Below are positions 4,771 through 54,760 of a stretch of 64,000 bases of DNA, piece by piece. Numbering within the stretch: position 1 is the first letter of the stretch; each line of letters opens with the position of its first letter. The translations under genes and the position numbers were made by a program. The notes beneath the pieces were generated by a model that was not told the DNA's origin, made no database searches, and saw nothing but the letters and a program-made list of their open reading frames with translations. Source of the stretch: a virus; the IMG/VR virus record IMGVR_UViG_3300045988_101878, positions 11,226-75,225 of that record; one strand, written 5' to 3'.

Positions 4771-4778
4771 AAAAAACA

Positions 4779-5949: not shown

Positions 5950-5978
5950 TTCGGGATGGGTTCGGGATTCGTTCGGGA
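5950..5978 (+). repeat. three TTCGGGA copies phased at 11 bp
   Basis: TTCGGGA occurs at 5950, 5961 and 5972. Confidence 0.6.
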
Positions 5979-5997
5979 CGTGGCATGAAGGCAGAGA

Positions 5998-6587: not shown

Positions 6588-6633
6588 CGGTTGTGGTTAT
6601 AGGATTTATGTTGAACATTAAAACTTGCAAGAT

Positions 6634-7338: not shown

Positions 7339-7372
7339 TCATATATATTTCAAATTAAAATTATTGCTCAAC

Positions 7373-9389: not shown

Positions 9390-12300
9390 ATGGCAATAGA
9401 TAGAAGTAAGTTGCAGAGGATGTACAAGCTTATGGCTGACAACGGCTATACCCAGGACTATAATACATTCGAGAAGAAGTTTACTGGTGACAGCAATTAC
9501 GCCAACAGAAAGGCTGTGTACGACCTGTTCACAAAGAATGGTGCTGACTTGGGAGGCTCGTATGAGGAGTTTATGCGCAAGTTGCAGAAGCCAAGAGCGA
9601 CAAAGCCTCAGCAGCAACCAAAGACCGCATTAGGCAGGGCACAACAGAGCGTGGCGCAACAGAAATGGGGAGGCTATGGTGGTGCTGTGACTCCAATGCA
9701 GAATGACAGCGAGCTTGTGCGCGGATTGAAGAATGCGGACGCGGCACAGAGGTTGCAGGTTCCCGTGAGCTATGCAAAGCCGGGTGCTGTGAAACAGATG
9801 GTGAAGCAGACAAGGGAGAGACAGCATGTCGTTGGGCAGAATGTGGAGCAGGCAGGACGTAGAACCATGCAGCCATTACGTGAAGAAGAGAAGAAAAACA
9901 GAACACCCGTTTTTGATACTGGCAACAAGAATCTGAACCAGTATGTGGTGAACACGCAGGGACAGATGGAGCGTCAGATGATGGACAGCGGACGTGAGAT
10001 TGCAGGTGATCATCTTGGAGACTATATCTCCTACAATATCCGCAATGAGTTTGACGCTGCTGCCAAGAGAGGACTGGAGGCTGAGTCAGCCTTGAGCAAG
10101 GCTTCACCATTCGCCTCTATGGTAGCTGGCAAGGCTTACAACGATGCGCTTGACCCCGATATGCTTATAAAGAATCTCTCCAAGAAAGCGGAGAGCGATA
10201 TGGCAAACATTCTCTCAGACCCGAAAGTGCTTGAGAATATTGGCGTTAAGGCGGCTGCCTATGGTGTTGACCCAGAGGAATATGTAAACAAGATATTCGC
10301 TCCTGGCTTGCAAGCAAAGATAGCCGAGGAGTTTGAGAAGAGCGAGCTGAGCCGTAATATGCCTAAGAGTACGGCAGAATACATCATCCGCGGTGTTAAT
10401 GACTCGATGATTGGTACTATCTTGTCAATGAGCATGATGTCAAAGAAGCAGAGACAGTATGCTCAGCAAGGAATGGCAATGACCGATAACGGCGAGAATC
10501 CTGATGTTAACCCGAATATGGGCGCAAGAGTGGCACGCGGAACATTGAGCTTTGTTGCTGATGCTCCTGTATTTGGTGCTGCTGGAAAGGCAGGTGCTGC
10601 TGTTGCAGGAAAGGTATTCGGCAATGGAGTGGCACAGATGGCGAGAGTGGCAAATTCTTCTTTGGGTGGACGTATTGCTCGTATGGCAGGTTCTGGAATG
10701 GTGAGCCAAGGCGTTACTGGTGTGCTTTACGGTTCGACGAATGCGGCTGTACAGAACTACTCTACTGGCGACGACACTTCTATTGGCAATACCGTGAAGC
10801 TTATGACTATGGGCGGCGTTTCGGAAGGCGCAAGTTGGGCCACTATGGGTGGCATTGGCGGTGCTGTTGGAGGAAGCCTGTATAATGTGAGTGGTTTTAA
10901 GCGCATTCCTGCCAAGGTGTTCCAGATAGCGATGGAAGGCGTTGGTATGCACATGGGTGGTAATGTTGCCAAGATGATAGAGGGTCATGATACCGACTGG
11001 CTGAGCGTAGAGGGGAACCTTGAGGCTTGTGCCAATGTTGTAGCCTTGAAGCTGACACACGCAAGACTGCCTAAGCGTTATGCGAAGGACGGCAAGAAGG
11101 AAAGCTATCTTGGCATGGTGGCGAGAAATCTTTATAATCTTACTGTCTCGGACAGACAGAGAACTGCCCTTGGTGGATATACTTTCACCAATGAGGAGAA
11201 AGAACAGCTGTTCGGGAGCGCGAATGCGCCAAGGAGAAAAGAATATACCTACGGATATGATAAGTATGACGTGCCTTTGACAAGAAGTGAAAATCTTATT
11301 GATTGGGCATTGAGAACCAAGAAGACAACAGCCAGAGGAAAGGGCGAGGAATCTTATAATGGCACGGACGCTGAGTTTGTGAAGACTGCCTATGACGAGA
11401 TAATGGCTGACAATACCATTCCTTGGGACACAAAAGCTAAATTCTCGGCTTTGGTTATGGGAACTGTTCCTTCGGCACGTCCGATGATGGACCATATAGC
11501 GATAGAGCGTGACGAGAGAGGAGCGTATGTGGGTGAATATAGCCTTTATGGAGAGTTGCTCTCAAAGAACCGCTATAAGACAGCCGACGAATACGTTTCA
11601 ATCAAATACAATCTTGGGGCGAAGAAAGAAAACCAACGTTTGAGTAATGCCTATGGTGCAGCTCAGATAAAGGACGAGAAGGCGGCACAAGAAACATTGG
11701 AGACTGTAGCTGAGACGTTTGGCTTTACTGCTGAACAGTTGAAGGCAGCTATGGACAAAGACCCGTTGAAGCGCAGCGAGGAGGAACAGAATGCTTGTGT
11801 GGCTCTGAGAAAGGCTTATGAGGGAGAGCAGTTCCCGGAAGGAACGTTGCATCCCGACCAGTCGCAGACAGAGGGCAAGGACGTGGTTGAGGAGAATAAC
11901 CTTGGCACGGAGAATCCTAACAACGAGGCTGTGGCTGAGGTGCTGAACAACATGAATAATGCCGAAAAGGCGTTTAATGCAGCCTTGGAAAGCAACGATG
12001 TGTTGAAGCAGGAGTATGAGAGACTGGCAAAGGAGGGTCTTTCGGAACCTCAGATATACATGGAGCTGTTTAATTCGGGACTGACGCAGGAACAGCTTGC
12101 ACCTTTTGCCGACTACATCAACGCCAAGGCTAAGGCTGTGGGCATGTATCGCGGAACTGAACAGAAGATTGCTGAGACCGTGCAGAAGCATGTGGAGCAA
12201 TGGAGCTACAAGGGCGAGCTGAATGGCGAGAAGCAAGAGGGCGGTCAGATGGTGTTCGTGAAGGACAACAAGGGCAGACTGCTGATTGTTGGAGCGGGCG

Positions 12301-15300
12301 ATGTTGCCTTTGATAATGATGGCAGAGCGAGAGAAAGCGTTGGCGACATGCTTAGCGTGCTTGATGCTGAGAAGGGAGAAATGGACTTCGTGAGCGTTAA
12401 GGACGTGAAACTGGAGCGCACTGTGGCAAGCGAGGAGTATGCAAAGGAATACCAGGAACTGTTGGAGGTTAAGAACTCTGAGGTGTATGCTCAGAATGAG
12501 CAGCAAAAGCAGATGGAGAATGCGGCAGGTGGTGTGACACCTGAAGGTGGAAAGCCGGAACAGCCGATAACAGAGCAGGGCAACGCAGAGACTACCGTGC
12601 AGACTGGCGAGGCAAACAAGCCTGTGCGTACATTTGCCGATGGCTCACCTGTGCCCATGACAAAGGATTCGAAGGGTCGCGAGACTGCTGCCTACTCGAT
12701 GATGACTCCAGAGCAGGGAGCCGAGTGGATAGAAAAGACATTCGGAGAGGATGCTGAGGCTGTGGCAGACGGTAAGATTGAGCGAGCCAAGAAGGATTTG
12801 AGCAAAGCCGAGAAGATGGATATAGACATGACCGCTGACGATGCGGACGTACTGGAGGCTAAGACCAAGAAGAAGGCTGCTATTGAAGCTGCCCAAAAGG
12901 AGCTTGAGCTTTACACCAACATCAAGATGGCGATGGTGGAGAAGAAGGTGAAGGCTACGATGGAGAAAGAAAATACTGTAGGTGAGGTAGATAGTGCAAG
13001 TCGTGTTAGTGACGCCGTGCGCGAGAAGTTCGAGAAATCAAAGAAGATTCCCGGACGACGTGGTTCTATCACTCTTCCTGATGGAACTAAGATAACTGGT
13101 CAATACTTTTATGGCGAGGTTTCAGGACTTACACCTTCGCACGATCCGTTTAATGACTTTAAGCAGAACGAGGGATTCCCAGTTAATGAAGACGGCTCTT
13201 CCTCAAACTCACGTTCTTACAAAGACAAGGAGTCGCGTCTGTTTACAGAGAAAATTGGCAGAGACTTTGGCGGGCAAGCACTAAAGAATGTGCCAGTTGT
13301 GCAGGATGGTATTCTGTTAAGCGGAAATGGCACGACTATGGGTAAACAACTTGCGGAACGCTATGGTACTGACGGCAAGTATTATGAGAGCCTAAGTGAA
13401 AACGCAGAAGGCTTCGGCTGGACTCCAAAGCAAATTGAAGAGGCAGGCTTTAAGGGTACTGTATATTTTGTACCCGACAAAAAGATGCCACTTACAAGTA
13501 AGACATTTGACCTTTTCAACAAGCAAGAGACAAAGAGCATTGGCAATACAGAGCAGTCGGTAAAGAATGCCAAGGTGTTAGACACGGACGAGATTAGTGC
13601 CATCGTGTCGGAGATAGAAGGAAGTGGCAGTCTTGACGCATTCTTTAACAATCCTACTGCAATAAACTCGTTGCTAAAGCGTTTAATTGATAAGGGCGTT
13701 ATTGGCTTGAACGAGGTAGCCGGATTGCGCGAGGGCGAGAACAAACTTTCGGCTTCGGGCAAGGACTTTGTGAGAAACCTGCTGTTGGGCAGCGTGTTCT
13801 CGGAGGACACTATCAGAATGATGGGTGCAGACGCAGGTTTGAAGTCGAAGGCTCTGAATGGTATACGTGCCGTGCTTGACAATATGAAGCTTGGCGACTA
13901 TGCCCTTAGAGGCGAGATTGACAAGGCTGTGCAGTTGGTATATGAGGCACGTCAGCAAGGTGGCGACGTGGATGCTTATTTGCGCACTCCTGCCATGTTC
14001 GGAGAAAATGCGGCAGATAGATACGACCCAATATCACAGGCTATAGCTCTTGCGCTTGACGGCAAGGCTGAGGACTTCCGCGATTTGATGATGGCATACA
14101 ACCGCAATGCGGCACATTATGCCGATGCTAATCAGTTGGACGTGTTCGGCGACCGACCTACAAAGGAGGAGTTCATTAACGAATTTTTGAAACTTAGAAA
14201 CTGGAAGAACTATGAAACAAGACGTTCAGAAAATGAAGGAAATGGCGATGTTGGCGGCACTCAAGGAAGTGAACCAGAAACGTCAGGAGGAAATGAACAG
14301 ACAGAAGGAGAAGGAGTAACGCCTACTGGTGCAGGCGCGGGTTCGCCTATGGACCCAGACAGATTTGACCGAGCTGTTGAGCAGCTAAAGACTGCCAAGG
14401 GTGAGGAGCGTGAACGTATACTCGACCAAATGGAAGAGTATGTGAATGAGTTTGCCGAGAGCAATGGATATGACAAGCCAGTTGTGCTGAGAACAAAGAA
14501 GGACTTGGCGGATGCGGCGAAAGACCCAGACGACAAATTCGCAATAGAAAATATGCCAGATGATGCCCATAATCCTGGTTATTATGAGGATGGGAAAATC
14601 CATATATATCTTGAAGGCAGTAGAGGTTCTAAAGAGTTGCGCGAGACATTTGAGCACGAGTCGGTTCATGCTGACAATGATGCAGACCCTTCAAGAGTGG
14701 AAATGCTCATTTCTTCCGTAAACGAGACTGGCGAGATAACATTTGAAGAATTAGAAAAAGTTGTTGAGACTTTATCTAACTCAGACCGTTATTCATACCT
14801 TGCAGAAAAGCTGGATTACAACGATGGATTGCGCATGTTGGCAGATGAAGCCTTAGCGCACCTTGTTGCACATGCTTATAAAAATGGTATAGATGCGATG
14901 TCGGATATAACTAAGAATTCTACATTACTCTATATAGCAAAAAAATCATTTAAATTTAGAGAAAATGAAAGACAGCGACAAGAACGAGAATCAATTAGTG
15001 GAAGTACTGAGCAACAGCGGAAGAAAGTCGATGTTCAGCCTACACAAGAGCACAGTGGAACTGTGGGAGAAAATAATGAAGGAAAATCCGGAGTTGTCAC
15101 AGATGCAAGCATTGGGACAGGCATTCGTGATAATGAAGGAGAAGGAGAAACAATAAATGACAGAAGAAGAAAAGAAGGACTTGCAAAGAGTGGAGATAAG
15201 ACACTCGAGCGGAAGAATCTCGATGATGTATCTACCGAAGAAAACGGTGGAGCATTGGAGGGAGATAAGGAAGGCAAACCCGAAAATGACAATGGAGGAA

Positions 15301-18300
15301 GCCCTGATAGAGACATTCAAGCAGGAGAAGAACAGCGAGAAGTAGAAGAAAAAGCAATATTTGAACAGAGAAAGGCTGAATATCTTAAAGCCTTGAAGGA
15401 AGGTAAGACTGGCAAAGAACTTGAAAATGCGAAATTGCATTACAAGTTTTCTTTCTTGGACTACCAAAATATAATGGGCGTAACTGACGCTGAGTCGCTT
15501 GAAAAATTATGGAAGAGGGAGCTTGAATCGGCAAAGGATTCTAATGGTATTGGAAGTGAAGAGGCTCTTGCCATTCTTCCTAAGAAGGAAGAGAAAACGT
15601 TTGATCCGATTGGTAAGGCTGCGGAGAACTACAAGAAAGACCATCCTTTGACAGATGAGGAGATTAGGAGTAGCGATGTGGACGACATTGCAAAGGATAT
15701 GGCTGTAGATTATCTGAATGGCGAGGTGACGGATGATTTGCATCGTGCCGTTTATGAGAGCATCTATGAAAAGGTGAAGGATGCGAAGATGAAAAACGCC
15801 ACTAAGCAAGCGGATAATAAAACAGAAACTACCGAAACTCCTAATGTGGAAGCCTCAGCAAGCCCTATTGAGGGAATGAAGAATGCTGCCGAGAAGTTTG
15901 CTAAAGAGAAAGAGGCTGCTGTAGAAGCTATGGGCGAAGTGAAGAAGCCTCAGCAAAAGGCTGACGATGCAGCTGTGGAAGCGTCGAACAAGAAGGTTAA
16001 CGACCTTTGGAACGACTTGCTGAAAGCAGGCAGAGAGGATTTGTCGGCATCATTCATCGGACTTAACGCAAGACAGCTTGAAGTGCTGCCTAAACTTGTG
16101 AGTGCAATGGCAGAGAACGCTTACCTAAGAATAAAGAGAGGTATGCACAATCTTGAAGACGTGGTAAAAGAAATGCGCAAGGAGTTTGCTCCAGCAGCCC
16201 AGGTGTTCAAGAAGGAAGATGTGGATGCCATCTACGAGCAGATGATGAACATTCGCTATCGTGACGGCGAACAACGCATGAGCTTGAAGGAATGGGCAGA
16301 CTACTACGAGAAGATTTCACCTAAGCACAAGGAGGAACTTGTGGGCGACTCCAAGGAGGCAGAAGAGAGAAAGATACGCGAGAAGAAATTTATAGACAAA
16401 GTGAACCTTCGTCTTGGTTTCGGACAGAAGATTAACGGCATCGTAGAGCTGAGAAAGATGGCAGAGGAATGTGGACTGAAAGACGTGAAGGACACGGACT
16501 TGCAGGAACTTGCCGAGACAGCCATCGTACAGAGAGCGAGAGGTATCGCTTCTTCGGAGTCAACCAATAATACCGAGAAGTTCAAACGTATAAAGAAACT
16601 CTACGAGAATCAGCCGAGCCTTAATCAGCGTGACTCAGAGAGAGTGATGAAGCAGCAGTATTCCACACCTGCTCCTTACGCATTCCTTGCAGACATGTAT
16701 GTGAAGGCAGGAATTGAAGTAAAGAGCGCATTGGAGCCAAGTGCCGGAAACGGAATGCTGACAATAGGCTTGCCTAAGGATGCGGTACATGTGAACGACA
16801 TCGACGCACAGCGACTTGCCAACTTGCAGAGACAAGGCTTCAAGAACGTAACAAGCCAAGACGGAACACAGCCGTTTGCGGACAAGGACGTGGACGTGGT
16901 TGTGACAAACCCACCATTTGGAAGTGCCACACCAAGGGATTATGACGGTTATACTATCTCTTCATTGGAGGGACAGATGGCTATCAATGCCTTGGAGAGC
17001 ATGAAAGACAACGGTCGTGCAGCCATCATCATCGGCGGCAAGACGGAATACGCCAAGAACGGAAGTCTGAATCCAAAGGATAAGGCTTTCCTTGGTTATC
17101 TCTACAGCCACTATAATGTGGAGGACGTGATAAACGTGGATGGAAGCCTGTACGCAAAACAGGGCACAACATACCCGACACGCATTATATTGATTAACGG
17201 ACGACGCTTTGACGAGAATGCCTATCCGCCAGTTAAGGACAAGGCAAGAGCGGAAGCCGTGAAGAGTTATGACGAACTTTATAAAAGAATAAACGATGAT
17301 ATACTACGAAGTGGAAGGATGGATTCTCCCGTCGGAGAAGGAGGAGAAGATGCTAACGCAAAACCTAATAGACCGAGCGTTGCTGACGCTAATGAAGAGG
17401 GAGTACGAGCAGGAGGAAACGGAGGAGGCGAACAAAAGCCTTCAGTTCGTACTGGAGGAGTACATGACAAGACTGCCGAACCAGTTTCCGACAATGTATT
17501 GGGGACAGAAGGAGGAACCAAGCCAGGAGAAAATGGAGGACTTCCTGATGGAGCTATTGGAGCAAACGGAGCAGGGACAGAGCCTACTTCAAGCAAGGAA
17601 CCAACCACTGGAACCAACAAGCAGCGAGGAAATGAACCAGGAGGAAATGGACGACCTAACACTCAGCCAAATGCTGATGAAACTACCGATGCCGGGAACG
17701 GAGGGAGACCACGGGGACAACTGGAGCGGGTGGACAAACCCGTACGTGGACTAAGTGCCGAAAAGGTTGCTTATACGCCAAGAAGTGAAAACCCGTTCAC
17801 TCTTAAAGCTGTTATGCCTGCCGACCAACAAGAGGCAGTTAATAAGAACCTCGAAAAACTGGGTGATGCAGACCAATTCTTGGTTGACGAACTGGGCTAC
17901 AACGATAAAGCAGACCTATACGCACATCTTGCAGCAGAGCAAGTAGACTCAGTAGCTCTCGCTTTGCAACAGGCAAAGAAAGGCAATGCCTTTATCATCG
18001 GTGATATGACAGGTATTGGCAAGGGTAGACAGGCAGCTTCGCTTATCAGATACGCCAAGAACCAAGGACAAGTGCCAGTATACTTCACAAAGACAGCAGG
18101 TTTGCTGAGTGACGTATATCGTGACTTGGTAGACATAGGTAGCAAAGAATTGAGACCGTTTGTATTTGGAAGCGCAAAAGAAGCTGCCATTACAGACGCT
18201 GACGGAAACGTAGTATTTGCACTACCTTCGAAGAATGAAGTGAAGCGCGTGCTTGACTATATAGAAAAGAACGGAGAACTACCAAAGGAGTATGATTACG

Positions 18301-21300
18301 TTCTGACGACATACAGCCAAGTAAGCAACGGCGTATATGAGTTTGACGAGAATGGCAATCGTAAGGAAAGGAAATTAGCCAAAGGCAAAAAGTTTGGTGC
18401 AGCAGCAATCAGCGGACAAGCCCGACGTGACGCTATAGAAAAGCTCATGAAGAACGGCTATCTGATATTGGACGAGAGCCATACAGCAGGAGGTGACAGC
18501 GGTCAAGGCAACTACTTCCAGCACATCATTCAGAAGGCAAAGAACGTGACCTTCTTCTCTGCAACCTTCGCAAAGCGTCCCGACAACATGCCAATCTACG
18601 CGCTAAGAACGGCAATGAACCAGGGAGGAATGAAAGCATCCGACTTGATAGACGCCGTGAAGCGTGGAGGAGCCACACTACAGGAAATCATGAGTCAGGC
18701 GCTGACCCAATGCGGACAGATGATACGTCGCGAGCGAGACATGACAGGCGTGACTATTGACTGGAAAGCCATTGACGACCCCGAAGTTGTTGCCGAACAG
18801 CGCGAGCAGTATGACAGCATCATCGGTCTGTTCAACGACATCATCAACTTCCAAAGAACCTATGTAAGCGCATACGTAGACAGACGTAATGAAGAACTTG
18901 CAGAGGTGCAGTCGTCGATGGGCATAAAGCGTGGCACAGAAGCCTTGGGAATAAAGAACCAACCGTTTGCAAGCAAGGCATTCAATACTGTGCAACAAGT
19001 GCTTCTCTCGCTTAAAGCAAAGTCGGCAGCAGAAAGAGCTATTGACTACTTGAAGCAAGGCATGAAGCCTGTGATAGCATTGAACAATACCAACGAGTCG
19101 CAGACGGGTAACCTTGCGCTTGGCGAAGAAATGGACGCTCCCGACTTGGGCACATCACTAAAGAAAGGACTTGAAGGTACGCTTCGCTATACGAGCAAGA
19201 ACGCTAAGGACGAAAGCGAAAGCGGATATATTAATCTGAAAGACTTGGGTGCAGATGCCGTTGAGGCATACCATGCTCTTGAAGAAAAGATAAGAAAGAC
19301 AAGTACCGGACTATCGCTCTCGCCTATCGACGTTATTAAGAACGAACTGACAAAGGCAGGGTATAAGGTAGGCGAGTTGACTGGTAGACAGACAGAGTTT
19401 GTGTATAACGAGAACGGCACGGTAACGAAGGTGAAGCGTGCGGACACAGACAAGAAGAAACTTGCGAGAGAGTTTAACGACGGACAGATAGACGCGCTAA
19501 TCTTGAACAAGAGTGCGGCAACTGGTATATCACTCCATGCTTCAAGCAAATATGCCGACCAGAGAAAACGAGTTATGATTGTTGCCCAGCAGCAGCTTGA
19601 CGTGAACGATGAGGTGCAGATGCGTGGACGTATAGACAGAACGGGACAGGTGGCAAGAGGCGCATACGAATACGTTGTGTCGCTTATCCCGGCAGAGCAG
19701 CGACTGTTGATGATGTTCAAGGCAAAGCTGAAATCATTGGACGCAAACACCACTTCTTCACAGAAGAGCAAGTTCAATGAAATGGAAGTAGCCGACATTA
19801 CCAATAAGTACGGAGACAAGGTGGTGAAGGAATACATGGCAGAACACCTTGACTTGTATGCACGTATGGCAGACCCATTCGGATGGGAGAAATCTTATGG
19901 AGCAGACTTATCAACAGTAGACCCACAAAAGTTGGTTTCTTCTTCTGACGGCATGAATAGTGAGGCTGGAGGCGACGCTAACAAGTTGCTTGGCCGTATG
20001 GCTTTGCTGAAAGTGAAAGAGCAAGAGAAGATGTTGCAAGAGATAGGCGACCTTTATGCAGCCGAGATACAACGTCTGAACGAAATGGGCGAAAACGACT
20101 TGGAGATAACAGAGTTGCCTTTGAAAGCTAAGACCTTAGACAGGATTATTTGGAAGGAAGGTACAGAACCAGGCGGCGACAATGCCTTTGCCGACAATAC
20201 TTATATAGAGAAGGTGAATATGGCTGTACTGAAAAAGCCGATGAAAGCGGAGGAGGTAAAGAAAGCTCAGGACGGACTCACGGGCGGCAAGTCGTGGGAC
20301 GAATACCGCAAGGAGAAGCTAACCGCTGCAAAAGAATACTTTGACAAGAAGATAGCCGAAGCTACTCAGAAATACGAGGAGCGTGCCGTTAAGGCTGCAA
20401 CAAAGGTAAAGGAGAAGTATATCAAGGAAGCAAAGAAGGGTCAGAAAGAAACTGGCGTGAGCGACGAGCAGATTGAAAAGACTGCTGGCTATCAGTACGA
20501 AAACGCCTATAACGATGAGAAGACTAAGCTTGACGAAGTGGTGAAGAACCTCAAAGCGAAGTATGGCGTATTTGAGCGTGCGCTTGAAACATTCAACACA
20601 GAAGACGCATTTGTACTGCCAACAGACATGAACAATCCCGCTGAGTTGAGCGGATTCGGCAACAGCTATGGCAGACTGATAGACATAAAGATAACTGACA
20701 ACTTCTCGCCAAACGCCTCAACAATATCGTTCGCCACATTGGACGGACGAAGAAAGATAACATTCCCTATAAACGGAAAAGCAGGACTCGGAATCGACAA
20801 GGTTGATGTTATAGAAATTATTGACAGGCAGACAAGGCAGGCATCGTCGTTGGGTGACAAGAATCTACGTGTATTGAGTATGGATGCCTCCAACTGGGAC
20901 AAGCTGACAAGCAACGAGAGCCGTAAGGACGGATATATCATTACCGGAAACTTGCTGCAAGGCTTGATTGACACCAAGGCAGAGTTCTTGGGTGCTCAGT
21001 TAGTGAAATATACAACAGATACAGGTGAAGTCAAAACTGGTATTTTGTTATCTGGTAATGTAAAACTGAAAAACCTTGCCAACGAGAAGCCTATTAATAG
21101 CGTAGCTGAAAAATTTGAATTGCCATCTAACAAGGGTGGCATAACAGAGGTGACATCTTCGGACGGAGACGTGAAGATAGAGCAAAGTTCAGTTTACACA
21201 AGAGAGGAATCTAACTATAACATCCGTGTTCCAAAGAGTAACAAAAAGGGAGGCAAGTATTTCCTTGATAAAGAGCTGCTGCAAATGGTTGTTGGCGGTA

Positions 21301-24300
21301 ACTTTGAGACAAGAGGAAACACGATGTTTGCCCAGATAAAGACTGGAAAGCTAAAGGATGTACTTGACAGACTTTCGGAGCTTGGCGTAAAGGTAAAGGA
21401 AGAAAGCAAGGTGCATTACCGCATGGAGCTTGGCAACACCTTCTCAGACAGCAAGGAACACTTTGACGCTGTGAGAGACAGAGCTGTGGAGGAGAAAGGA
21501 ATCGTTATGCCTAATCTGAATAAGGAGAAGGTGAAGGTGGTAGAGGTTGAGAAATCTCCCTTTGGTGACAATATTGAAACTTCTTTAAAAAATGCCAGAG
21601 AATGGGCAAAAGAAAACCTTGTAACAACGGGAAAGACAGAAATGCCTATTATGCGCGATGGTACATCTTATACAATCAGCAAAAGGGCTGTTGAAAAATA
21701 TCTTTCAGAAAGTGCTGTTCGTAAAAGTGAGAATCTTGACATTCATCTTTCGGTACTTCCCAAACTTACAGATGTTGTCCATGAGAGCATTGAAGCAGAG
21801 ATACACCCGGATTACAAAAAGGGTGAAGACGGAATACGTGGTATTGAGAATGGATATGGTGAAGGTATTTTAGTACATAGACTTTATGGCGCAGTAGAAC
21901 TGGACGGTAAGATGTATCGTGTTAAGACTACTATGCAAGAGTTCAGAGGTGGGGAAGAAAACAAACCTCATAGCTATGAGGTAACAAAAATAGAGCTGCT
22001 TGACTCCCCTGGAAAGCGAGAAAATCCCGACAGACCACCTTTGGTTTCATCAAACAACTCTAAAAATATAACGTCGGAAGGTTCCGAGAAAGCGAACGAA
22101 TCCGACAGTCTCCCTTTGAACAGTGCAACCAACGGTTATATTTCAACTGCAAAGTTACTGCAAGGAGTTGAGAAATCCTACGATTCGGGCAAGAAATTGC
22201 TTGATGAGAGTAAAGATTTAACAGATGGGGAGACTTTCTTTAGAAAAGAAGGCGATGGTGTTGTAACACCTGAGAAGACTTCGAATGCTATGAGCGAGCG
22301 TATCATCAAGACCGTTGAGAAGGTTGCCAAGAGAACTGGAGGCAAGGTGAAGATGGTGAACTCGGTTGAGGAGATTGAGAACCCGAAGGTGCGCAAGGAC
22401 ATAGAGAACGGCAAGCAGGTGACTGGCTGGTATGACGAGAAGACGGGCGAGGTGCATCTGTATATGCCGAACATCCATGACACGTATACCGCGGAGAAAA
22501 CCGTTTGGCACGAGACTGTAGGACACAAGGGCATGAGAGGTTTGCTTGGAGATAAGTTTGACTCCTACATGAGAGACCTTTGGATGGACTTGGACAACCC
22601 TATCAATGCTGAGCTGAGAGCTTATGTGAAGGAAAAAATGAACATGAATCACCTTGGATTCTATGACGCTATTGAGGAGTTTATCGCCAAGAGCGCAGAG
22701 GACGGAAAGGGTGAGCCTGGCTTCTGGAACTACATTAAGAATAAGGTAACAGATGCCCTGCATGAGATAGGCTACAGAGTTTCGCCTAACGTGAAGGACG
22801 TGAAGTATATGCTGTGGCTGGCGAAGAACGTGCAGAAGCATGGAGACAGTCCGCTGTGGAAGCTGAGAGCTGAGGCTGTGAGGTGGAAGATAGAGCATGA
22901 GAAGACGGAGTACACGAAGATTGAGGGCGGCGAGCTGTATGACAACGACGGCAAGAGCCATGACTTCGAGAGCATGAGCCGCGAGGAATGGCTGGAGGCA
23001 ACGGACGGAGAGATACACTACCGCACGACTCCAAGCGCTGCTACCGCTTTGGACAGATACCATCATGCCCTGGACCGTCATAGCTATATGGCTACGGAGG
23101 CTTTCATGGACAATATGCTCTCGTTGAAGAAACTCATGGAGGCTATTGATCCATCTATCAGAAAGATAGAAGATGTGGCAAGCTCGATGAACCCATATCT
23201 GATGCAGAATATCACGGAGGGCAAGATGAGCGACAAATCCAAGCTCTTCGAAATACGCTATATGGACCCGCTTAGCAAGGCTATGTCGAGCGTGTTGGAC
23301 AGCTTCGATGGCAAGAAGGTGGAGGACAGAATAAGGAACTTCAATCTGTATATGATTAGAAAGCATGGATTGGAGAGAAACCGTGTGCTGTTCGTGAGAG
23401 ACAAGATAAGGGAAGAACGAAAAGTGAAGAGTGAAGAATCCAATAGTATTGATGCTTTGGAGACTGCTTGGAAGGGCGAAAAATACGACCTTAGAAAGAA
23501 GCTTGACTCGGGACAGATAGACTTGAAGGAGTACTACCGTCAGATGGACGAGTGGATTGTAACGAACTTGGACAAGGACTTTAAGGCTGAGGAGCATGAC
23601 TATTCGGGTATGCACGGCTTGCAGGGTATTGCAGACAAGAAAGCAGCTTATGATGATGCCGGAGCTATTGACGAGGTAATGAGCCAGGAGGCGAGCATGG
23701 AAAGCATGAAGAAAGGCTCAGTTGCCGACTTCTGGAAGAAGGTGAAGGCAGCTACTGATTATTCTGTAAATTCGGACTATGAGAGTGGACTGATAAGTCA
23801 AATTACACACGACGGAGTGTTGGGCATGTTTGACTGGTATGTACCGTTGAGAAAGTTTGACGAGGCTACCGCTGAGGACGTATACGGATATGTGACAGAA
23901 ATGGGCGACCCAAGCAACTATATCGGCACGACGCTGATGAACGCCAAGGGACGAAAGAGCCTGAGCAATGTGGAGATATTGGCACAGATTGGCTTAATGG
24001 GCAACCGTGCGATAAGAAACGGAGGTCAGAACACTATAAAGCAAGCCTTTGCGCGATTCGTGAGAAACAGCGGAGAGCAGAATCTTGTGAAGGAGACAAA
24101 GGTTTGGGTAGAAAAAATAGGCACAGACAGAAACGGTAACGACATTTGGGAGGAGGCTTATCCGAAGATTCCCGAAGGAGCCGAAGCTGATGAAGTTGCA
24201 GAAATTGTGGATGCCTTTGAAACGGACATGAGGGCCAAGCAAGCTAAGGGCGAGGCAAAGAGTCTGAGCAACAGCACGGACATCGGCTTCAAGTTCCAAA

Positions 24301-26327
24301 GAGCGAAGGACAAGAGCCAACACTTTGTGGACGTGAAGATAGCAGGAAGAACACACAGATTTGTGGTGCTTGGCAATCCGAGAGCGGCACAGGCTTTGAA
24401 TGGAATGCTGGAGAATGGCAAGGCAAGCCAAAAGTGGTTGCAGACTGTGACACGATGGATGGCTATGGCCTCAACATCGTGGAGTCCGGAGTTTGTAATG
24501 AGAAACATCGTGAGAGACGCGGAATTTGCATCTTCGCATGTGAGGGCAAAGGAAGGTGGAATATATGCTAAGAAATGGGCACGCTATTATGGTGAGCTTA
24601 ATCCGCTGAATGTGTTCTACAATGAGGGCGCAGGAAGATTGAAGAGCATGAAGATGAAAGACTTCAAGAATGGTGTAGGCTTCGGACTGTATGCCCGATA
24701 CAGAGAGGGCACGCTTGGCAACTCGAAGATGGAGCGATACTTCAAGGAGTTCATGGAGAACGGTGGCGAAACAGGTTTTGTTCAGTTGTTCTCGATGCAC
24801 GACATGGAGAAGAGCTACAAGAGTATCGTTGAGAAGGAGTCGGCAAAGGGCGCGAAGAAGGTTATGGTTAATGCTATGGAAGTGCTTAAGAATTTAGGCA
24901 AAAACGTGGAGAGTTTGAATGAGGTGGCTGAGAATATGGCACGCTTCGCCACGTATTGCACTTCAAGGGACTTGGGACGTTCGGCAGCAAGAAGCGCGTA
25001 TGACGCAAAGGAGGTTTCGACAAACTTCAACCGTCATGGTTCGGGCGATGAAATAAAGAGCTTCAAGAACGGAGAAATGAGCGGTTGGCAGAAGACAAAA
25101 CGAAACACATACGGCTTTGTGGCTGGCTACCTAAGAAACTACTCGATGTTCTTCAATGCTGGCATTCAGAGCACGAACCTGCTGTTCAAGAATATCAAAC
25201 GTGCGCCTGTGGGTACCGCTGTTGCTATGACCTCTGCCCCGTTTGCCTTAGCGTTGATTATGGCTGCTGTCAACAATGCTATTATACAGAATGAGGATGA
25301 TAAGGACAGAGGCAACGTGAAGGATCCGTATGGCGAGTTGCCTGACTATATCAGACGAAACAATCTGTGTATATATGTGGGCAATAACAAATTTGTGACT
25401 GTGCCGTTGGCCATTGAGCTGAGAGCGTTCTATAGTCTTGGTGACTTGGCAGCAGGACAGACGTTTGCCAAGAACGTGAAGAGTCAGAGAAACATAGCGA
25501 TGGATGCTGTGGGCTGTATGTCGCAGCTATTCCCGGTAACGGACTTCTTGAATAATCCGAATTATGAAAAGAGCTTGGAAAATGGAGTTGGTATGACTAT
25601 TAAAGGTCTTGCTCCTACTGCTATAGTTCCGTTCATTGAGTGGTGGCTTAACAACGACTGGAAGGGTGCGCCAATAAGACGAACGGGCGATAAGACAGAG
25701 CTTAACCCGGCATGGCAGAACGCCTATAATAATGTTCCGGCAAGACTTGTGGACTTGAACAAGTGGGTGAACGCCAAGACTAACAACATAGCTCCTGGCA
25801 ATCCGGAAATGAAGGGTAACGATGCTCTTGACTGGATTACAGACCCGTCGATGCTTAATCATTTCTATAGCTCGTGGAGTGGCGGAATGGGCACATTCGT
25901 TCAGCGTACTGCAGGCTTGGGTGCAAAGGCAACGACTGGCAAGGCTGACGAGATAGAAGTGGGCGACGTGCCATTCTTGCGCTCACTCTTCTATACTCCA
26001 AGAGAACAGTCGAGCATGGCGAGAACCAAAGCCAAATGGTATAACTACAAGGAGGAAATGGAACAGACTATCGCCAATAACGACAAGCTGAAATCGAAGA
26101 ACGTGCCGACGATGAAGAGGATTGAAAATGCTGCTGTATTAGAGAAGTTCGAAGGTTCGCCTGAGCAAAGAAAGGTGAATATCATCAAGAATGCGGAAAA
26201 GCGAATGAGACACTGGAACACTATGAAAAAGAAGTGGGCCGATGATAAGAAGCAGGTGGACTTTGCGAACCATAATATTGAGATGATAATGCAGGAGGCG
26301 GTGGAGGAATTGGATAGGATTGAATGA
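9390..26327 (+). CDS. giant polyvalent protein (5,645 aa) with zincin-like, N6-adenine MTase and SNF2/Sno-like helicase modules; DarB-like
   Basis: A single 16,938-nt ORF. Motifs found:
- Gly/Ala-rich hydrophobic block, aa ~370-533.
- HESVH, aa 1756-1760.
- QQYSTP, EPSAGNG and NPPF (aa 2507-2510), matching MTase motifs X/I/IV.
- GDMTGIGKGRQ (aa ~2871), LILDESH (aa ~3028) and QMRGRIDRTGQ (aa ~3411), matching helicase motifs I/II/VI.
- HETVGH, aa 4374-4379.
- C-terminal TM segments, nt ~25095-25290. Confidence 0.85.
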   Translation: MAIDRSKLQRMYKLMADNGYTQDYNTFEKKFTGDSNYANRKAVYDLFTKNGADLGGSYEEFMRKLQKPRATKPQQQPKTALGRAQQSVAQQKWGGYGGAVTPMQNDSELVRGLKNADAAQRLQVPVSYAKPGAVKQMVKQTRERQHVVGQNVEQAGRRTMQPLREEEKKNRTPVFDTGNKNLNQYVVNTQGQMERQMMDSGREIAGDHLGDYISYNIRNEFDAAAKRGLEAESALSKASPFASMVAGKAYNDALDPDMLIKNLSKKAESDMANILSDPKVLENIGVKAAAYGVDPEEYVNKIFAPGLQAKIAEEFEKSELSRNMPKSTAEYIIRGVNDSMIGTILSMSMMSKKQRQYAQQGMAMTDNGENPDVNPNMGARVARGTLSFVADAPVFGAAGKAGAAVAGKVFGNGVAQMARVANSSLGGRIARMAGSGMVSQGVTGVLYGSTNAAVQNYSTGDDTSIGNTVKLMTMGGVSEGASWATMGGIGGAVGGSLYNVSGFKRIPAKVFQIAMEGVGMHMGGNVAKMIEGHDTDWLSVEGNLEACANVVALKLTHARLPKRYAKDGKKESYLGMVARNLYNLTVSDRQRTALGGYTFTNEEKEQLFGSANAPRRKEYTYGYDKYDVPLTRSENLIDWALRTKKTTARGKGEESYNGTDAEFVKTAYDEIMADNTIPWDTKAKFSALVMGTVPSARPMMDHIAIERDERGAYVGEYSLYGELLSKNRYKTADEYVSIKYNLGAKKENQRLSNAYGAAQIKDEKAAQETLETVAETFGFTAEQLKAAMDKDPLKRSEEEQNACVALRKAYEGEQFPEGTLHPDQSQTEGKDVVEENNLGTENPNNEAVAEVLNNMNNAEKAFNAALESNDVLKQEYERLAKEGLSEPQIYMELFNSGLTQEQLAPFADYINAKAKAVGMYRGTEQKIAETVQKHVEQWSYKGELNGEKQEGGQMVFVKDNKGRLLIVGAGDVAFDNDGRARESVGDMLSVLDAEKGEMDFVSVKDVKLERTVASEEYAKEYQELLEVKNSEVYAQNEQQKQMENAAGGVTPEGGKPEQPITEQGNAETTVQTGEANKPVRTFADGSPVPMTKDSKGRETAAYSMMTPEQGAEWIEKTFGEDAEAVADGKIERAKKDLSKAEKMDIDMTADDADVLEAKTKKKAAIEAAQKELELYTNIKMAMVEKKVKATMEKENTVGEVDSASRVSDAVREKFEKSKKIPGRRGSITLPDGTKITGQYFYGEVSGLTPSHDPFNDFKQNEGFPVNEDGSSSNSRSYKDKESRLFTEKIGRDFGGQALKNVPVVQDGILLSGNGTTMGKQLAERYGTDGKYYESLSENAEGFGWTPKQIEEAGFKGTVYFVPDKKMPLTSKTFDLFNKQETKSIGNTEQSVKNAKVLDTDEISAIVSEIEGSGSLDAFFNNPTAINSLLKRLIDKGVIGLNEVAGLREGENKLSASGKDFVRNLLLGSVFSEDTIRMMGADAGLKSKALNGIRAVLDNMKLGDYALRGEIDKAVQLVYEARQQGGDVDAYLRTPAMFGENAADRYDPISQAIALALDGKAEDFRDLMMAYNRNAAHYADANQLDVFGDRPTKEEFINEFLKLRNWKNYETRRSENEGNGDVGGTQGSEPETSGGNEQTEGEGVTPTGAGAGSPMDPDRFDRAVEQLKTAKGEERERILDQMEEYVNEFAESNGYDKPVVLRTKKDLADAAKDPDDKFAIENMPDDAHNPGYYEDGKIHIYLEGSRGSKELRETFEHESVHADNDADPSRVEMLISSVNETGEITFEELEKVVETLSNSDRYSYLAEKLDYNDGLRMLADEALAHLVAHAYKNGIDAMSDITKNSTLLYIAKKSFKFRENERQRQERESISGSTEQQRKKVDVQPTQEHSGTVGENNEGKSGVVTDASIGTGIRDNEGEGETINDRRRKEGLAKSGDKTLERKNLDDVSTEENGGALEGDKEGKPENDNGGSPDRDIQAGEEQREVEEKAIFEQRKAEYLKALKEGKTGKELENAKLHYKFSFLDYQNIMGVTDAESLEKLWKRELESAKDSNGIGSEEALAILPKKEEKTFDPIGKAAENYKKDHPLTDEEIRSSDVDDIAKDMAVDYLNGEVTDDLHRAVYESIYEKVKDAKMKNATKQADNKTETTETPNVEASASPIEGMKNAAEKFAKEKEAAVEAMGEVKKPQQKADDAAVEASNKKVNDLWNDLLKAGREDLSASFIGLNARQLEVLPKLVSAMAENAYLRIKRGMHNLEDVVKEMRKEFAPAAQVFKKEDVDAIYEQMMNIRYRDGEQRMSLKEWADYYEKISPKHKEELVGDSKEAEERKIREKKFIDKVNLRLGFGQKINGIVELRKMAEECGLKDVKDTDLQELAETAIVQRARGIASSESTNNTEKFKRIKKLYENQPSLNQRDSERVMKQQYSTPAPYAFLADMYVKAGIEVKSALEPSAGNGMLTIGLPKDAVHVNDIDAQRLANLQRQGFKNVTSQDGTQPFADKDVDVVVTNPPFGSATPRDYDGYTISSLEGQMAINALESMKDNGRAAIIIGGKTEYAKNGSLNPKDKAFLGYLYSHYNVEDVINVDGSLYAKQGTTYPTRIILINGRRFDENAYPPVKDKARAEAVKSYDELYKRINDDILRSGRMDSPVGEGGEDANAKPNRPSVADANEEGVRAGGNGGGEQKPSVRTGGVHDKTAEPVSDNVLGTEGGTKPGENGGLPDGAIGANGAGTEPTSSKEPTTGTNKQRGNEPGGNGRPNTQPNADETTDAGNGGRPRGQLERVDKPVRGLSAEKVAYTPRSENPFTLKAVMPADQQEAVNKNLEKLGDADQFLVDELGYNDKADLYAHLAAEQVDSVALALQQAKKGNAFIIGDMTGIGKGRQAASLIRYAKNQGQVPVYFTKTAGLLSDVYRDLVDIGSKELRPFVFGSAKEAAITDADGNVVFALPSKNEVKRVLDYIEKNGELPKEYDYVLTTYSQVSNGVYEFDENGNRKERKLAKGKKFGAAAISGQARRDAIEKLMKNGYLILDESHTAGGDSGQGNYFQHIIQKAKNVTFFSATFAKRPDNMPIYALRTAMNQGGMKASDLIDAVKRGGATLQEIMSQALTQCGQMIRRERDMTGVTIDWKAIDDPEVVAEQREQYDSIIGLFNDIINFQRTYVSAYVDRRNEELAEVQSSMGIKRGTEALGIKNQPFASKAFNTVQQVLLSLKAKSAAERAIDYLKQGMKPVIALNNTNESQTGNLALGEEMDAPDLGTSLKKGLEGTLRYTSKNAKDESESGYINLKDLGADAVEAYHALEEKIRKTSTGLSLSPIDVIKNELTKAGYKVGELTGRQTEFVYNENGTVTKVKRADTDKKKLAREFNDGQIDALILNKSAATGISLHASSKYADQRKRVMIVAQQQLDVNDEVQMRGRIDRTGQVARGAYEYVVSLIPAEQRLLMMFKAKLKSLDANTTSSQKSKFNEMEVADITNKYGDKVVKEYMAEHLDLYARMADPFGWEKSYGADLSTVDPQKLVSSSDGMNSEAGGDANKLLGRMALLKVKEQEKMLQEIGDLYAAEIQRLNEMGENDLEITELPLKAKTLDRIIWKEGTEPGGDNAFADNTYIEKVNMAVLKKPMKAEEVKKAQDGLTGGKSWDEYRKEKLTAAKEYFDKKIAEATQKYEERAVKAATKVKEKYIKEAKKGQKETGVSDEQIEKTAGYQYENAYNDEKTKLDEVVKNLKAKYGVFERALETFNTEDAFVLPTDMNNPAELSGFGNSYGRLIDIKITDNFSPNASTISFATLDGRRKITFPINGKAGLGIDKVDVIEIIDRQTRQASSLGDKNLRVLSMDASNWDKLTSNESRKDGYIITGNLLQGLIDTKAEFLGAQLVKYTTDTGEVKTGILLSGNVKLKNLANEKPINSVAEKFELPSNKGGITEVTSSDGDVKIEQSSVYTREESNYNIRVPKSNKKGGKYFLDKELLQMVVGGNFETRGNTMFAQIKTGKLKDVLDRLSELGVKVKEESKVHYRMELGNTFSDSKEHFDAVRDRAVEEKGIVMPNLNKEKVKVVEVEKSPFGDNIETSLKNAREWAKENLVTTGKTEMPIMRDGTSYTISKRAVEKYLSESAVRKSENLDIHLSVLPKLTDVVHESIEAEIHPDYKKGEDGIRGIENGYGEGILVHRLYGAVELDGKMYRVKTTMQEFRGGEENKPHSYEVTKIELLDSPGKRENPDRPPLVSSNNSKNITSEGSEKANESDSLPLNSATNGYISTAKLLQGVEKSYDSGKKLLDESKDLTDGETFFRKEGDGVVTPEKTSNAMSERIIKTVEKVAKRTGGKVKMVNSVEEIENPKVRKDIENGKQVTGWYDEKTGEVHLYMPNIHDTYTAEKTVWHETVGHKGMRGLLGDKFDSYMRDLWMDLDNPINAELRAYVKEKMNMNHLGFYDAIEEFIAKSAEDGKGEPGFWNYIKNKVTDALHEIGYRVSPNVKDVKYMLWLAKNVQKHGDSPLWKLRAEAVRWKIEHEKTEYTKIEGGELYDNDGKSHDFESMSREEWLEATDGEIHYRTTPSAATALDRYHHALDRHSYMATEAFMDNMLSLKKLMEAIDPSIRKIEDVASSMNPYLMQNITEGKMSDKSKLFEIRYMDPLSKAMSSVLDSFDGKKVEDRIRNFNLYMIRKHGLERNRVLFVRDKIREERKVKSEESNSIDALETAWKGEKYDLRKKLDSGQIDLKEYYRQMDEWIVTNLDKDFKAEEHDYSGMHGLQGIADKKAAYDDAGAIDEVMSQEASMESMKKGSVADFWKKVKAATDYSVNSDYESGLISQITHDGVLGMFDWYVPLRKFDEATAEDVYGYVTEMGDPSNYIGTTLMNAKGRKSLSNVEILAQIGLMGNRAIRNGGQNTIKQAFARFVRNSGEQNLVKETKVWVEKIGTDRNGNDIWEEAYPKIPEGAEADEVAEIVDAFETDMRAKQAKGEAKSLSNSTDIGFKFQRAKDKSQHFVDVKIAGRTHRFVVLGNPRAAQALNGMLENGKASQKWLQTVTRWMAMASTSWSPEFVMRNIVRDAEFASSHVRAKEGGIYAKKWARYYGELNPLNVFYNEGAGRLKSMKMKDFKNGVGFGLYARYREGTLGNSKMERYFKEFMENGGETGFVQLFSMHDMEKSYKSIVEKESAKGAKKVMVNAMEVLKNLGKNVESLNEVAENMARFATYCTSRDLGRSAARSAYDAKEVSTNFNRHGSGDEIKSFKNGEMSGWQKTKRNTYGFVAGYLRNYSMFFNAGIQSTNLLFKNIKRAPVGTAVAMTSAPFALALIMAAVNNAIIQNEDDKDRGNVKDPYGELPDYIRRNNLCIYVGNNKFVTVPLAIELRAFYSLGDLAAGQTFAKNVKSQRNIAMDAVGCMSQLFPVTDFLNNPNYEKSLENGVGMTIKGLAPTAIVPFIEWWLNNDWKGAPIRRTGDKTELNPAWQNAYNNVPARLVDLNKWVNAKTNNIAPGNPEMKGNDALDWITDPSMLNHFYSSWSGGMGTFVQRTAGLGAKATTGKADEIEVGDVPFLRSLFYTPREQSSMARTKAKWYNYKEEMEQTIANNDKLKSKNVPTMKRIENAAVLEKFEGSPEQRKVNIIKNAEKRMRHWNTMKKKWADDKKQVDFANHNIEMIMQEAVEELDRIE
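14965..15156 (+). CDS. nested +1-frame ORF, Arc/MetJ-like ribbon-helix-helix candidate (copy 1)
   Basis: 63 aa. SGRKSMFSLHKSTVELWEKIMKENPELSQMQALGQAF fits the strand-helix-helix pattern. An A/T-rich stretch lies upstream of the ATG. The TAA is immediately followed by the next ATG. The ORF lies inside the giant gene. Confidence 0.4.
   Translation: MKDSDKNENQLVEVLSNSGRKSMFSLHKSTVELWEKIMKENPELSQMQALGQAFVIMKEKEKQ
15157..15345 (+). CDS. nested +1-frame ORF, Arc/MetJ-like ribbon-helix-helix candidate (copy 2)
   Basis: 62 aa. SGRISMMYLPKKTVEHWREIRKANPKMTMEEALIETFKQE aligns by eye with P22 Arc (FNLRWPREVLDLVRKVAEENGRSVNSEIYQRVMESFKKE). Paralogous to copy 1. Confidence 0.4.
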   Translation: MTEEEKKDLQRVEIRHSSGRISMMYLPKKTVEHWREIRKANPKMTMEEALIETFKQEKNSEK

Positions 26328-26336
26328 TATGAAAAA

Positions 26337-26370
26337 GTGGCGAACTTTAACGGTTCGCCACTTTTATTTG
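26337..26370. terminator. bidirectional intrinsic terminator between convergent operons
   Basis: GTGGCGAAC (26337-26345) pairs with GTTCGCCAC (26353-26361). An A-run lies upstream and TTTTATTT downstream. Confidence 0.7.
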
Positions 26371-54707: not shown

Positions 54708-54760
54708 AATGCGCATAAATTTTAAAATGTTCACGATGTTTCGGGGAAACAAACACGCAT

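Follow-up and report, generated by a model that had tools for sequence, protein, structure and literature searches.

A 5,645-residue phage-type polyvalent protein with conserved ends and an exchangeable middle

Described giant phage proteins and the locus under study

Polyvalent proteins of the phage type, as described in 2017 by Iyer et al. in J Bacteriol (PMC5512222), join many unrelated domains into one giant chain, and the same is true of the protein analyzed here, which is encoded by a single open reading frame (ORF) at positions 9390..26327 of a 64,000-nucleotide stretch of viral DNA (positions 11,226 to 75,225 of the IMG/VR virus record IMGVR_UViG_3300045988_101878; hereafter the window). 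According to that paper, the LPD38 and ddrB-ParB domains are confined to phage-type, capsid-associated polyvalent proteins; a dyad of a methyltransferase (MTase) and an ATPase, usually preceded by an LPD36 domain with a GxG(G/A/S) motif, is proposed to act in DarB-like anti-restriction; helicases of the Strawberry-notch (Sbno) type are reported in few instances; and a plasmid polyvalent protein of 12,242 aa is on record. In phage P1, both DarB, at about 40 copies, and DdrB belong to the head, and a sequence at the N-terminus of DarB targets it to the capsid (PMC9024508). For the 4,515-aa gp69 of the Bcep22-like podovirus JC1, 51 unique peptides were detected in virions purified on CsCl (PMC9144972). 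The virion RNA polymerase (vRNAP) of phage N4, a 3,500-aa protein present in 4±1 copies, is ejected, its domains are loosely connected and its N-terminal domain is probably membrane-spanning (PMC13434306). Pavtok gp27, with 5,007 aa, was called the longest known phage protein in 2021, and very large putative ejection proteins must, according to Casjens and colleagues, cross their conduit at least partly unfolded (PMC8402733).

The protein of the window has in common with the phage-type polyvalents of PMC5512222 the LPD3, LPD38 and ddrB-ParB domains, the dyad of an adenine MTase and an ATPase of the SWI2/SNF2 clade, putative zincin-like modules, a prophage setting that includes genes for portal and terminase, and extensive mosaicism among orthologues. 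It differs from them in an N-terminal part of about 1,000 aa (the N-chassis) for which there is no Pfam, PHROG or NCBIfam model, in a conserved C-terminal unit of about 1,000-1,350 aa as against the 189-position LPD38 model, and in its Strawberry-notch type helicase. A layout of two constant ends with a train of cassettes between them, with cargo-free members, was not found in the sections of PMC5512222 that were consulted. Since LPD3 and LPD38, which are defined only on polyvalent proteins, both score above their cut-offs, together with enzymes of disparate kinds and a phage neighborhood of portal, terminase and capsid genes, the assignment to the polyvalent class made in an earlier sequence-only reading of this DNA (the original prediction) is confirmed; at least two domains of disparate activity (MTase, superfamily 2 (SF2) ATPase, ParB-like and peptidase-like) are carried by the one ORF. 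The architecture, the intact motifs of the MTase and the ATPase, the location in the late region, and the constancy of the two ends around a middle that is exchanged are matters of observation. We consider it probable that the protein is a phage-type polyvalent protein, composed of conserved N- and C-terminal chassis and exchangeable cassettes, that is packaged and delivered and serves in DarB-like anti-restriction.

Integrity and modules of the giant ORF

As originally predicted, the ORF is uninterrupted over 16.9 kb and 5,645 aa, with a continuous coding signal and one terminal stop. The chance of 5,645 stop-free codons, calculated from the base composition of the window, is about 1e-149. 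In 18 of 18 consecutive 900-nt segments (nt 9390-25589, the first 16.2 kb) there were no in-frame stops, the other two frames contained 10-37 stops each per segment, and the purine fraction at codon position 1 was 0.69-0.79 throughout; the coding signal is, thus, continuous there, and the last ~740 nt are covered by the single-terminal-stop ORF call. A chance ORF was rejected on the grounds of the stop-free probability and the continuous periodicity. In addition, a relative from an independent assembly (P0113, 5,726 aa) has an identical architecture with 71-95% identity, which shows that the giant ORF is not a mis-join, and an assembly chimera was therefore also rejected. The parts of the protein are as follows.

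9390..26327 (+), giant polyvalent-protein ORF; ATG start, one terminal stop, 5,645 aa, 627 kDa, isoelectric point (pI) 5.6
9390..9614 (+), swappable N-terminal domain of ~75 aa (aa 1-75); from comparison of relatives
9615..12584 (+), N-terminal chassis (aa 76-1065); conserved in all family members, including minimal ones of 2,435 aa
10500..10991 (+), Gly/Ala-rich, charge-poor hydrophobic block within the N-chassis (aa 371-534); from composition
12606..14309 (+), DdrB-like unit part 1, ddrB-type ParB with helical extension (aa 1073-1640); Pfam core aa 1296-1350
14337..15089 (+), DdrB-like unit part 2, HExxH metallopeptidase-like module (aa 1650-1900); invariant motif
15090..15560 (+), acidic Gly/Glu/Lys-rich linker (aa 1901-2057); from composition, G+C at third codon positions (GC3) 0.32
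15561..16649 (+), conserved helical region preceding the MTase (aa 2058-2420); at the LPD36 position
16650..17309 (+), N6-adenine (gamma-class, EcoKI/TaqI-like) DNA MTase domain (aa 2421-2640); Pfam and motifs
17310..17774 (+), low-complexity Gly/Pro/Asn/Thr linker (aa 2641-2795); from composition
17775..21353 (+), Strawberry-notch-type SF2 (SWI2/SNF2-clade) ATPase unit (aa 2796-3988); Pfam and motifs
21354..22244 (+), LPD3 module (aa 3989-4285; Pfam LPD3 aa 4066-4189); GC3 0.39
22257..26324 (+), C-terminal chassis (aa 4290-5645); conserved in all family members, pI 8.2
22257..22949 (+), HExxxH module opening the C-chassis (aa 4290-4520); invariant residues
25086..25292 (+), hydrophobic helical hairpin region (aa 5233-5301); hydrophobicity and AlphaFold2 (AF2) model
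25323..25979 (+), Pfam LPD38 (aa 5312-5530), marker of phage-type polyvalent proteins; Pfam

The prediction of an N6-adenine MTase followed by an SNF2/Strawberry-notch-like helicase was borne out, since profile hidden Markov model support for both modules was found above the Pfam cut-offs. The MTS family matched aa 2451-2555 (E 2e-5, 24.6 bits, cut-off 23) and the MTase motifs TP (2425), EPSAGNG (2450) and NPPF (2507) are intact. Fused C-terminal to it is the SF2 ATPase, with matches to AAA_34 at aa 2846-3142 (E 8e-16, 58.2 bits against a cut-off of 27) and to Helicase_C_4 at aa 3325-3574 (E 1.9e-27, 97.1 bits against a cut-off of 30.5), the latter followed by a helical/beta tail; Walker A (GIGKGR, 2875), DESH (3028) and motif VI (QMRGRIDRTGQ, of the form QxxGRxxRxxQ, 3410) are likewise intact. 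A conserved helical region occupies the LPD36 position ahead of the MTase, and we read aa 2058-3988, from their sequence, as a DarB-like unit of MTase and helicase. LPD3 was called downstream at aa 4066-4189 (E 1e-9, 37.5-38.9 bits, above the 27-bit cut-off).

The ParB-like region that had been proposed around an SGNGTTMG motif, here at aa 1311, holds as a homolog of ddrB-ParB alleles and of P1 DdrB, with the reservations that its own Pfam score is below threshold (aa 1296-1350, E 4.5e-4, 20.8 bits, cut-off 27.6) and that an arginine has been lost. The module aligns over its whole length with canonical ddrB-ParB alleles in relatives, the allele of P0010 passing the Pfam model (E 1.6e-14, 54.5 bits), and it aligns with the N-terminal 390 aa of P1 DdrB over 426 columns (BLASTP E 3e-6). 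The canonical alleles and P1 DdrB read GNGRTMG (GNGRTMAG) where the window protein, together with P0002, P0006 and P0127, reads GNGTTMG; this Arg, part of a GxxR motif, is the conserved active-site residue according to Iyer et al. (PMC5512222), and the active-site Arg has, thus, been replaced by Thr.

Two zincin-like modules had also been predicted, and the claim is half right, being plausible for the first of them. In module 1 (aa 1650-1900) residues H1756, E1757 and H1760 (HESVH) and a downstream Glu (MLADE1820xxAH) are invariant in relatives, and the module aligns with an HE(Y)xH module of relatives (hhalign, 85% probability, E 6e-6) that has a weak Pfam call to DUF6782, a putative metallopeptidase; a canonical zincin-type, peptidase-like module is therefore plausible for this segment, as a putative assignment. 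Module 2 (aa 4290-4520) has HExxxH and not HExxH, a motif that is invariant in 11 diverse sequences down to 18% identity, with H4374, E4375, H4379, G4387, E4430 and A4436-E4437 as its invariant residues. In the AF2 model it folds into a small alpha/beta unit with a long helix after it, and the profile-profile alignment of modules 1 and 2 (85% probability) covers the beta-strands and ends at the 'HE', which suggests that module 2 is remotely related to the HExxH module, with a non-zincin spacing. Profile searches with both modules gave no Pfam or PDB match. Since P1 DdrB consists of a ParB domain and a C-terminal metallopeptidase, aa 1073-1900 are regarded as a DdrB-like unit.

Outside these modules family searches gave little, in agreement with the original remark that most of the length has no assignable motif: Pfam covers about 19% of the 5,645 aa, NCBIfam had no match for any of ten pieces of the protein, phmmer searches of PDB sequences with both protein halves returned noise only, and megablast of the ORF against 50,697 phage records gave no match. 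Among PHROGs, phrog_14770 (3,427 positions, function not known) is collinear with aa 2360-5645, a 'DarB-like antirestriction' PHROG matches the C-terminus, and nothing matched within aa 1-800. A tape-measure protein was rejected for lack of similarity and because of the P22-like portal context. GC3 is 0.53-0.67 in the chassis, 0.37 in the HExxH module, 0.32 in the linker after it and 0.39 in the LPD3 module, a modular pattern that fits cassettes of separate histories.

Conserved ends and variable cargo among relatives

The N-terminal 75 aa are replaced in many relatives by an unrelated 'MPDNRYYYFKDAKGNRH...' domain (MPDNRYYYFKD...), and the type found here is also met on its own, as short proteins, and as part of other fusions (P0163, P0172, P0177 and others); it is reminiscent of a capsid-targeting or adaptor segment. 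The N-chassis that follows (aa 76-1065) had no match in Pfam, PHROG, NCBIfam or PDB, and a homolog search with a diverse N-chassis profile yielded close relatives only, so that the alignment was not deepened. Its Gly/Ala-rich hydrophobic block, predicted at nt ~10500-10990, was verified: aa 401-500 are 36% Gly plus Ala with 8% charged residues, and aa 432-460 and 480-503 are uncharged runs. Structure prediction was informative for the C-terminal end and poor for this one, the N-chassis model having a predicted local distance difference test score (pLDDT) of 51, with only aa ~700-1040 at 70-83, and no significant structural match in the PDB by Foldseek. With a pLDDT of 23-40, the Gly/Ala block probably either has no structure by itself or relies on a membrane or a partner. 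A small beta-barrel at aa ~950-1013 (window 12237-12428) of the same model resembles SH3, Tudor and KorB-C domains; the SH3/KorB-C comparison (~60 residues, probability up to 0.99, target template-modelling (TM) score 0.7) has an E of ~0.8 and is not significant.

The C-chassis gave a better model (aa 4290-5489, 41-sequence alignment; pLDDT 73, predicted TM score 0.67), which is largely helical with the small alpha/beta unit bearing HExxxH. A Foldseek search of the PDB gave no significant match (best E 0.07, TM score at most 0.1). The same search of BFVD returned 77 entries with E of at most 1e-3, the top one with E 2e-38 and TM scores of 0.59/0.73 over 921 columns. Nearly all 77 are the last fragments of large phage polyvalent proteins, including those of Ralstonia phage Alix and Escherichia phage PTXU04, whose cargo is unrelated (LT_GEWL lysozyme, RelA/SpoT, methylases); no such lysozyme was found in the window protein. 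These matches therefore define a conserved C-terminal unit of about 1,000 aa that far exceeds Pfam LPD38, itself called at aa 5312-5530 (E 4e-28, 96.5-99.1 bits, above the 27-bit cut-off). As for the C-terminal transmembrane segments of the original prediction, one strong candidate stands, a run of 30 hydrophobic residues at aa 5272-5301 that forms a 28-residue helix in the AF2 model, and the two hydrophobic helices before it are weaker. The hydrophobicity is also present in the aligned segment of BcepMigl gp16, the sole distant homolog inspected.

A search with the N-terminal 2,350 aa found 23 metagenomic relatives, and the BLAST map showed recurring breakpoints at aa ~1070, 1640, 1900-1990, 2058, 3988 and 4285. 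Two relatives of 2,435 aa (P0018 and P0019) consist of aa 76-1065 of the giant protein fused to aa 4280-5645 and nothing else; this minimal version occupies the same genomic slot, beside the same portal block, in a 64.8-kb phage contig (L003). In other relatives the cargo between the same ends comprises InPase, ART-PolyVal, PBECR3, LPD13, LPD23, another helicase and a DUF6782-like peptidase. An exhaustive HMMER search over 1.84 billion cluster representatives found the N-chassis in only 126, of which 44 have a length of 4,000 aa or more, 27 of 5,000 aa or more and 12 of 5,645 aa or more, the maximum being 6,440 aa. The giant protein is longer than Pavtok gp27 and than the 5,391-aa gp3 of Bacteroides phage BS-TP4 described below; the description of its size as extreme does not hold within its own metagenomic family, where that size is ordinary. 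Most of the giants of 5-6.4 thousand aa keep both chassis ends while the middle cargo varies, and this chassis-plus-cargo layout explains the range of 2.4-6.4 thousand residues among relatives.

In relatives P0003-P0019 a short motif, (K/E)P-x-(E/Y/W/D)-A-S/L-L-(S/G)-L-(S/T)-(K/E)-P, is present in 1-4 copies per protein (for example DKPHEASLSLTEP and PHWASISLSKP), at positions matching the mapped module junctions; the motif may serve as a processing site or as a linker, or may mark a DNA-level recombination hotspot, and the giant ORF of the window does not have it. The phage with the minimal version also encodes PcfJ, PcfK and DpnD-PcfM homologs (L003 832-2736), genes that are better known from conjugative plasmids.

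Compared with P1, where DarB (2,255 aa) and DdrB (995 aa) are two distinct proteins whose packaging requires DarA, Hdf, DdrA and Ulx, both a DdrB-like and a DarB-like unit are present here in one chain with extra modules. The order of a TP...NPPF adenine MTase and then an SF2 ATPase is that of P1 DarB, and darB likewise adjoins the portal gene; the differences lie in the helicase subfamily (Sbno type here), the lost ParB Arg and the fact that P1 is a myovirus. The DarB-like MTase-helicase of the original prediction is, thus, present as a dyad, and its kinship to P1 DarB is of motif level (BLASTP E 0.003-0.004). With the 'DarB-like antirestriction' proteins of the Burkholderia Bcep22 group (BcepMigl gp16, 4,658 aa; JC1 gp69) the protein has in common that it is encoded by one giant gene bordering the morphogenesis module, in phages of about 60 kb. 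The C-terminal ~500 aa, including the hydrophobic helices and LPD38, align with BcepMigl gp16 (BLASTP E 4e-17) and also with giants of Stx-converting, Vibrio and Ralstonia phages; the homology to the Bcep22 group covers the C-terminal part only, while the N-chassis, most of the cargo and the host phylum differ.

The closest annotated relative from a cultured phage is gp3 of Bacteroides phage BS-TP4 ('hypothetical protein', PQ571277), a 64-kb temperate Bacteroidales phage in which gp3 adjoins the portal gene and is not discussed in the publication describing it. It is ~35% identical and collinear with aa ~2351-5500 (MTase, Sbno helicase and C-chassis), and BLAST shows no relation for its N-terminal ~2,350 aa. 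The N4 vRNAP, gp50, is a giant, few-copy, capsid-packaged protein of loosely connected domains as well, with no detected similarity of sequence or fold and with an RNA polymerase as its payload instead of anti-restriction enzymes; by analogy, it would be the best mechanistic model for terminal 'delivery' parts around a central payload.

Proposed delivery, rival explanations and phage context

On the reading as a delivered polyvalent protein, the protein would be made late and built into the capsid in few copies by means of its chassis. It would then leave through the portal and tail channel, its domains loosely linked and the chain in part unfolded, either before the DNA or together with it, while hydrophobic segments of both chassis might engage the envelope or an ejectosome. 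In the cell, the MTase-translocase dyad would track along the entering DNA, methylating it in cis, and protect it from type I/III-like restriction in the way of P1 DarB. For the Arg-less ParB-like unit, DNA or nucleotide binding, or an aid to packaging as in P1 DdrB, seems more probable than cleavage, and the linkers of the chain may be cut by the HExxH module. Several points weigh against this reading. Packaging into the virion, ejection, processing, methylation and counter-restriction are all drawn from homologs and analogs, and a part of the N-chassis in packaging or ejection is conjecture, given its poor model and lack of a structural match. Similarity to P1 DarB is confined to the motif level and orthology was not detected; aa 2058-2425 have neither the GxG[GAS] signature of LPD36 nor a Pfam match; the ParB allele is without the conserved Arg of its superfamily; neither peptidase-like module matches a curated metallopeptidase family, and the spacing in module 2 is non-canonical. 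The genes of the window also do not establish the morphology of the virion (short tail).

The main rival, a different weighting that we consider improbable, makes the chassis primarily a structural ejection or internal-core protein, an essential part of a trans-envelope conduit like T7 gp14-16, P22 gp7/16/20 or the N-terminal domain of N4 gp50, with the enzymes as passengers. Chassis-only relatives in the same slot speak for it, since the conserved function cannot then depend on any cargo, as do the hydrophobic segments in both chassis, the C-chassis fold that is common to phage polyvalents whatever their cargo, the position of the gene among morphogenesis genes and the N4 vRNAP precedent (PMC13434306). 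However, no solved ejection protein resembles the giant protein in structure or in sequence, and P1 DarB, a myovirus protein, is dispensable for DNA delivery; this explanation is moreover compatible with a delivered polyvalent protein and differs only in which role is primary.

It is much less likely still that the protein is never packaged and acts within the lysogen or infected cell, as an MTase-helicase defense or exclusion system (type I/III-, BREX- or DISARM-like) or as a replication/recombination factor. The element is temperate, pairs of MTase and SF2 helicase are also known from defense systems (PMC5512222), and hosts are said by Iyer et al. to be able to domesticate polyvalent proteins. 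Against such a role stand the place of the gene in the late/structural region, co-oriented with three upstream ORFs, and the presence of LPD38 and ddrB-ParB, which are restricted to the phage type. Homologs that have the C-terminal module are, in addition, virion proteins (PMC9144972), and no nuclease or specificity subunit was found, although no search against PADLOC defense-system models was made. That the single ORF is an artefact, several adjacent genes having been fused by sequencing errors or chimeric assembly, would suit the marked GC3 differences between modules and the fact that most database relatives are fragments, but we regard it as extremely improbable. The 5,645 codons contain 0 in-frame stops (P ~1e-149) with continuous periodicity, P0113 and dozens of other giants of 5-6.4 thousand aa are intact, the cultured phage BS-TP4 has a 5,391-aa homolog, and the module junctions are in-frame disordered linkers and not intergenic-like.

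Around the giant gene the window contains the following features.

6625..9377 (+), three co-oriented upstream ORFs (237, 231 and 461 aa); no family match
26333..26368 (about; no strand), hairpin GTGGCGAAC-7 nt-GTTCGCCAC; read directly
34230..35915 (-), probable major capsid protein; homologous to the DUF5309-type BS-TP4 gp11
37718..39709 (+), P22-like portal protein; profile match and BS-TP4 synteny
42121..44259 (+), large terminase (TerL), 712 aa; homologous to BS-TP4 gp7
53565..54794 (-), tyrosine integrase with Arm-DNA-bind_5 and SAM_5, Bacteroidota-type; profile matches

Three co-oriented ORFs of like size (239, 135 and 481 aa) also precede the big gene of L003, as judged by position and size, and the three ORFs of the window may be partners of the giant protein; the 461-aa ORF showed no similarity to the ~500-aa virion protein that precedes the BcepMigl giant. 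The hairpin 3' of the stop is perfect, 9 bp long and G+C-rich, with an A-run upstream and a T-run downstream. It sits between the giant gene and a convergent gene at 26393-27259, and is probably a bidirectional intrinsic terminator common to both. The portal, TerL, the capsid protein and a 253-aa neighbor are common to the window and BS-TP4. BS-TP4 gp7 (L001 20340-22436) was deposited as 'tail spike protein'; given its 35% identity over ~700 aa to the 712-aa terminase-like protein of the window, and its own note citing a terminase structural match, it is probably a mis-annotated TerL. After TerL, at 44324-47005 (+), an 893-aa protein matches phrog_32516 (function not known, E 5e-77), and a faint 'internal virion protein' family match makes a second ejection or internal protein possible.

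The tyrosine integrase indicates that the element is temperate; a beta-helix protein and an Ant anti-repressor are also encoded, and no tRNA was found in the window. A recombination module at 57764-61614 (+) consists of consecutive genes for an SbcC-like ATPase of 682 aa, a RecT of 325 aa and an HNH endonuclease of 214 aa. The left arm (positions 1-6000) is lower in G+C (0.38-0.43) than the remainder (0.44-0.50), its AT skew is opposite, and small ORFs are numerous on either strand; it looks like an early/accessory region or a flank. A conjugative-element origin was rejected, there being no type IV secretion system genes and phage structural genes instead. Relatives carry Prevotella or Prevotellaceae labels, and genomes that contain the N-chassis are those of Candidatus Segatella violae and, at 71% identity, Leyella (Prevotella) stercorea; from these gene contents and labels we take the element to be a temperate phage that has a P22-like portal and infects Prevotellaceae (Leyella/Segatella). 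A 48%-identical N-chassis piece in a contig binned as 'Lachnospiraceae bacterium' (L007, CAVJZZ010000009.1) may be mis-binned phage DNA or may reflect a wider host range.

The class to which the giant protein belongs was described in 2017, and the protein is a large and instructive example of it, not a new kind of system; the finding confirms that class and overturns nothing. What it adds is a chassis/cargo anatomy with cargo-free natural variants, a fusion of DdrB and DarB that collapses a P1-like Dar system into a single chain, an invariant HExxxH variant, a ~1,000-aa C-terminal fold of phage polyvalents that is absent from the PDB, and an undescribed N-terminal module of about 1,000 aa. A bolder proposal, which we offer tentatively and hold to be less likely than not, is that the two ends make up a generic, self-contained delivery vehicle, with a capsid-targeting and ejection scaffold, membrane-engaging segments and autoprocessing by the HExxxH module, into which phages of several phyla might load arbitrary cassettes by recombination at disordered linkers; the C-terminal fold would then be a universal 'injection handle' of phage polyvalents that could be used for engineered cargo into gut Bacteroidales. 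Polyvalent proteins are believed to form a major part of phage counter-defense that has hardly been tested, and the present family is found in temperate phages of Prevotellaceae, which are dominant gut bacteria. Within it, the cargo-free versions of 2.4 thousand residues and those of 5-6.4 thousand residues, with the same ends in the same slot, provide a clean natural experiment that separates 'delivery' from 'payload', and, if it is true that the chassis mediates encapsidation and ejection, it would be usable for protein delivery into gut anaerobes.

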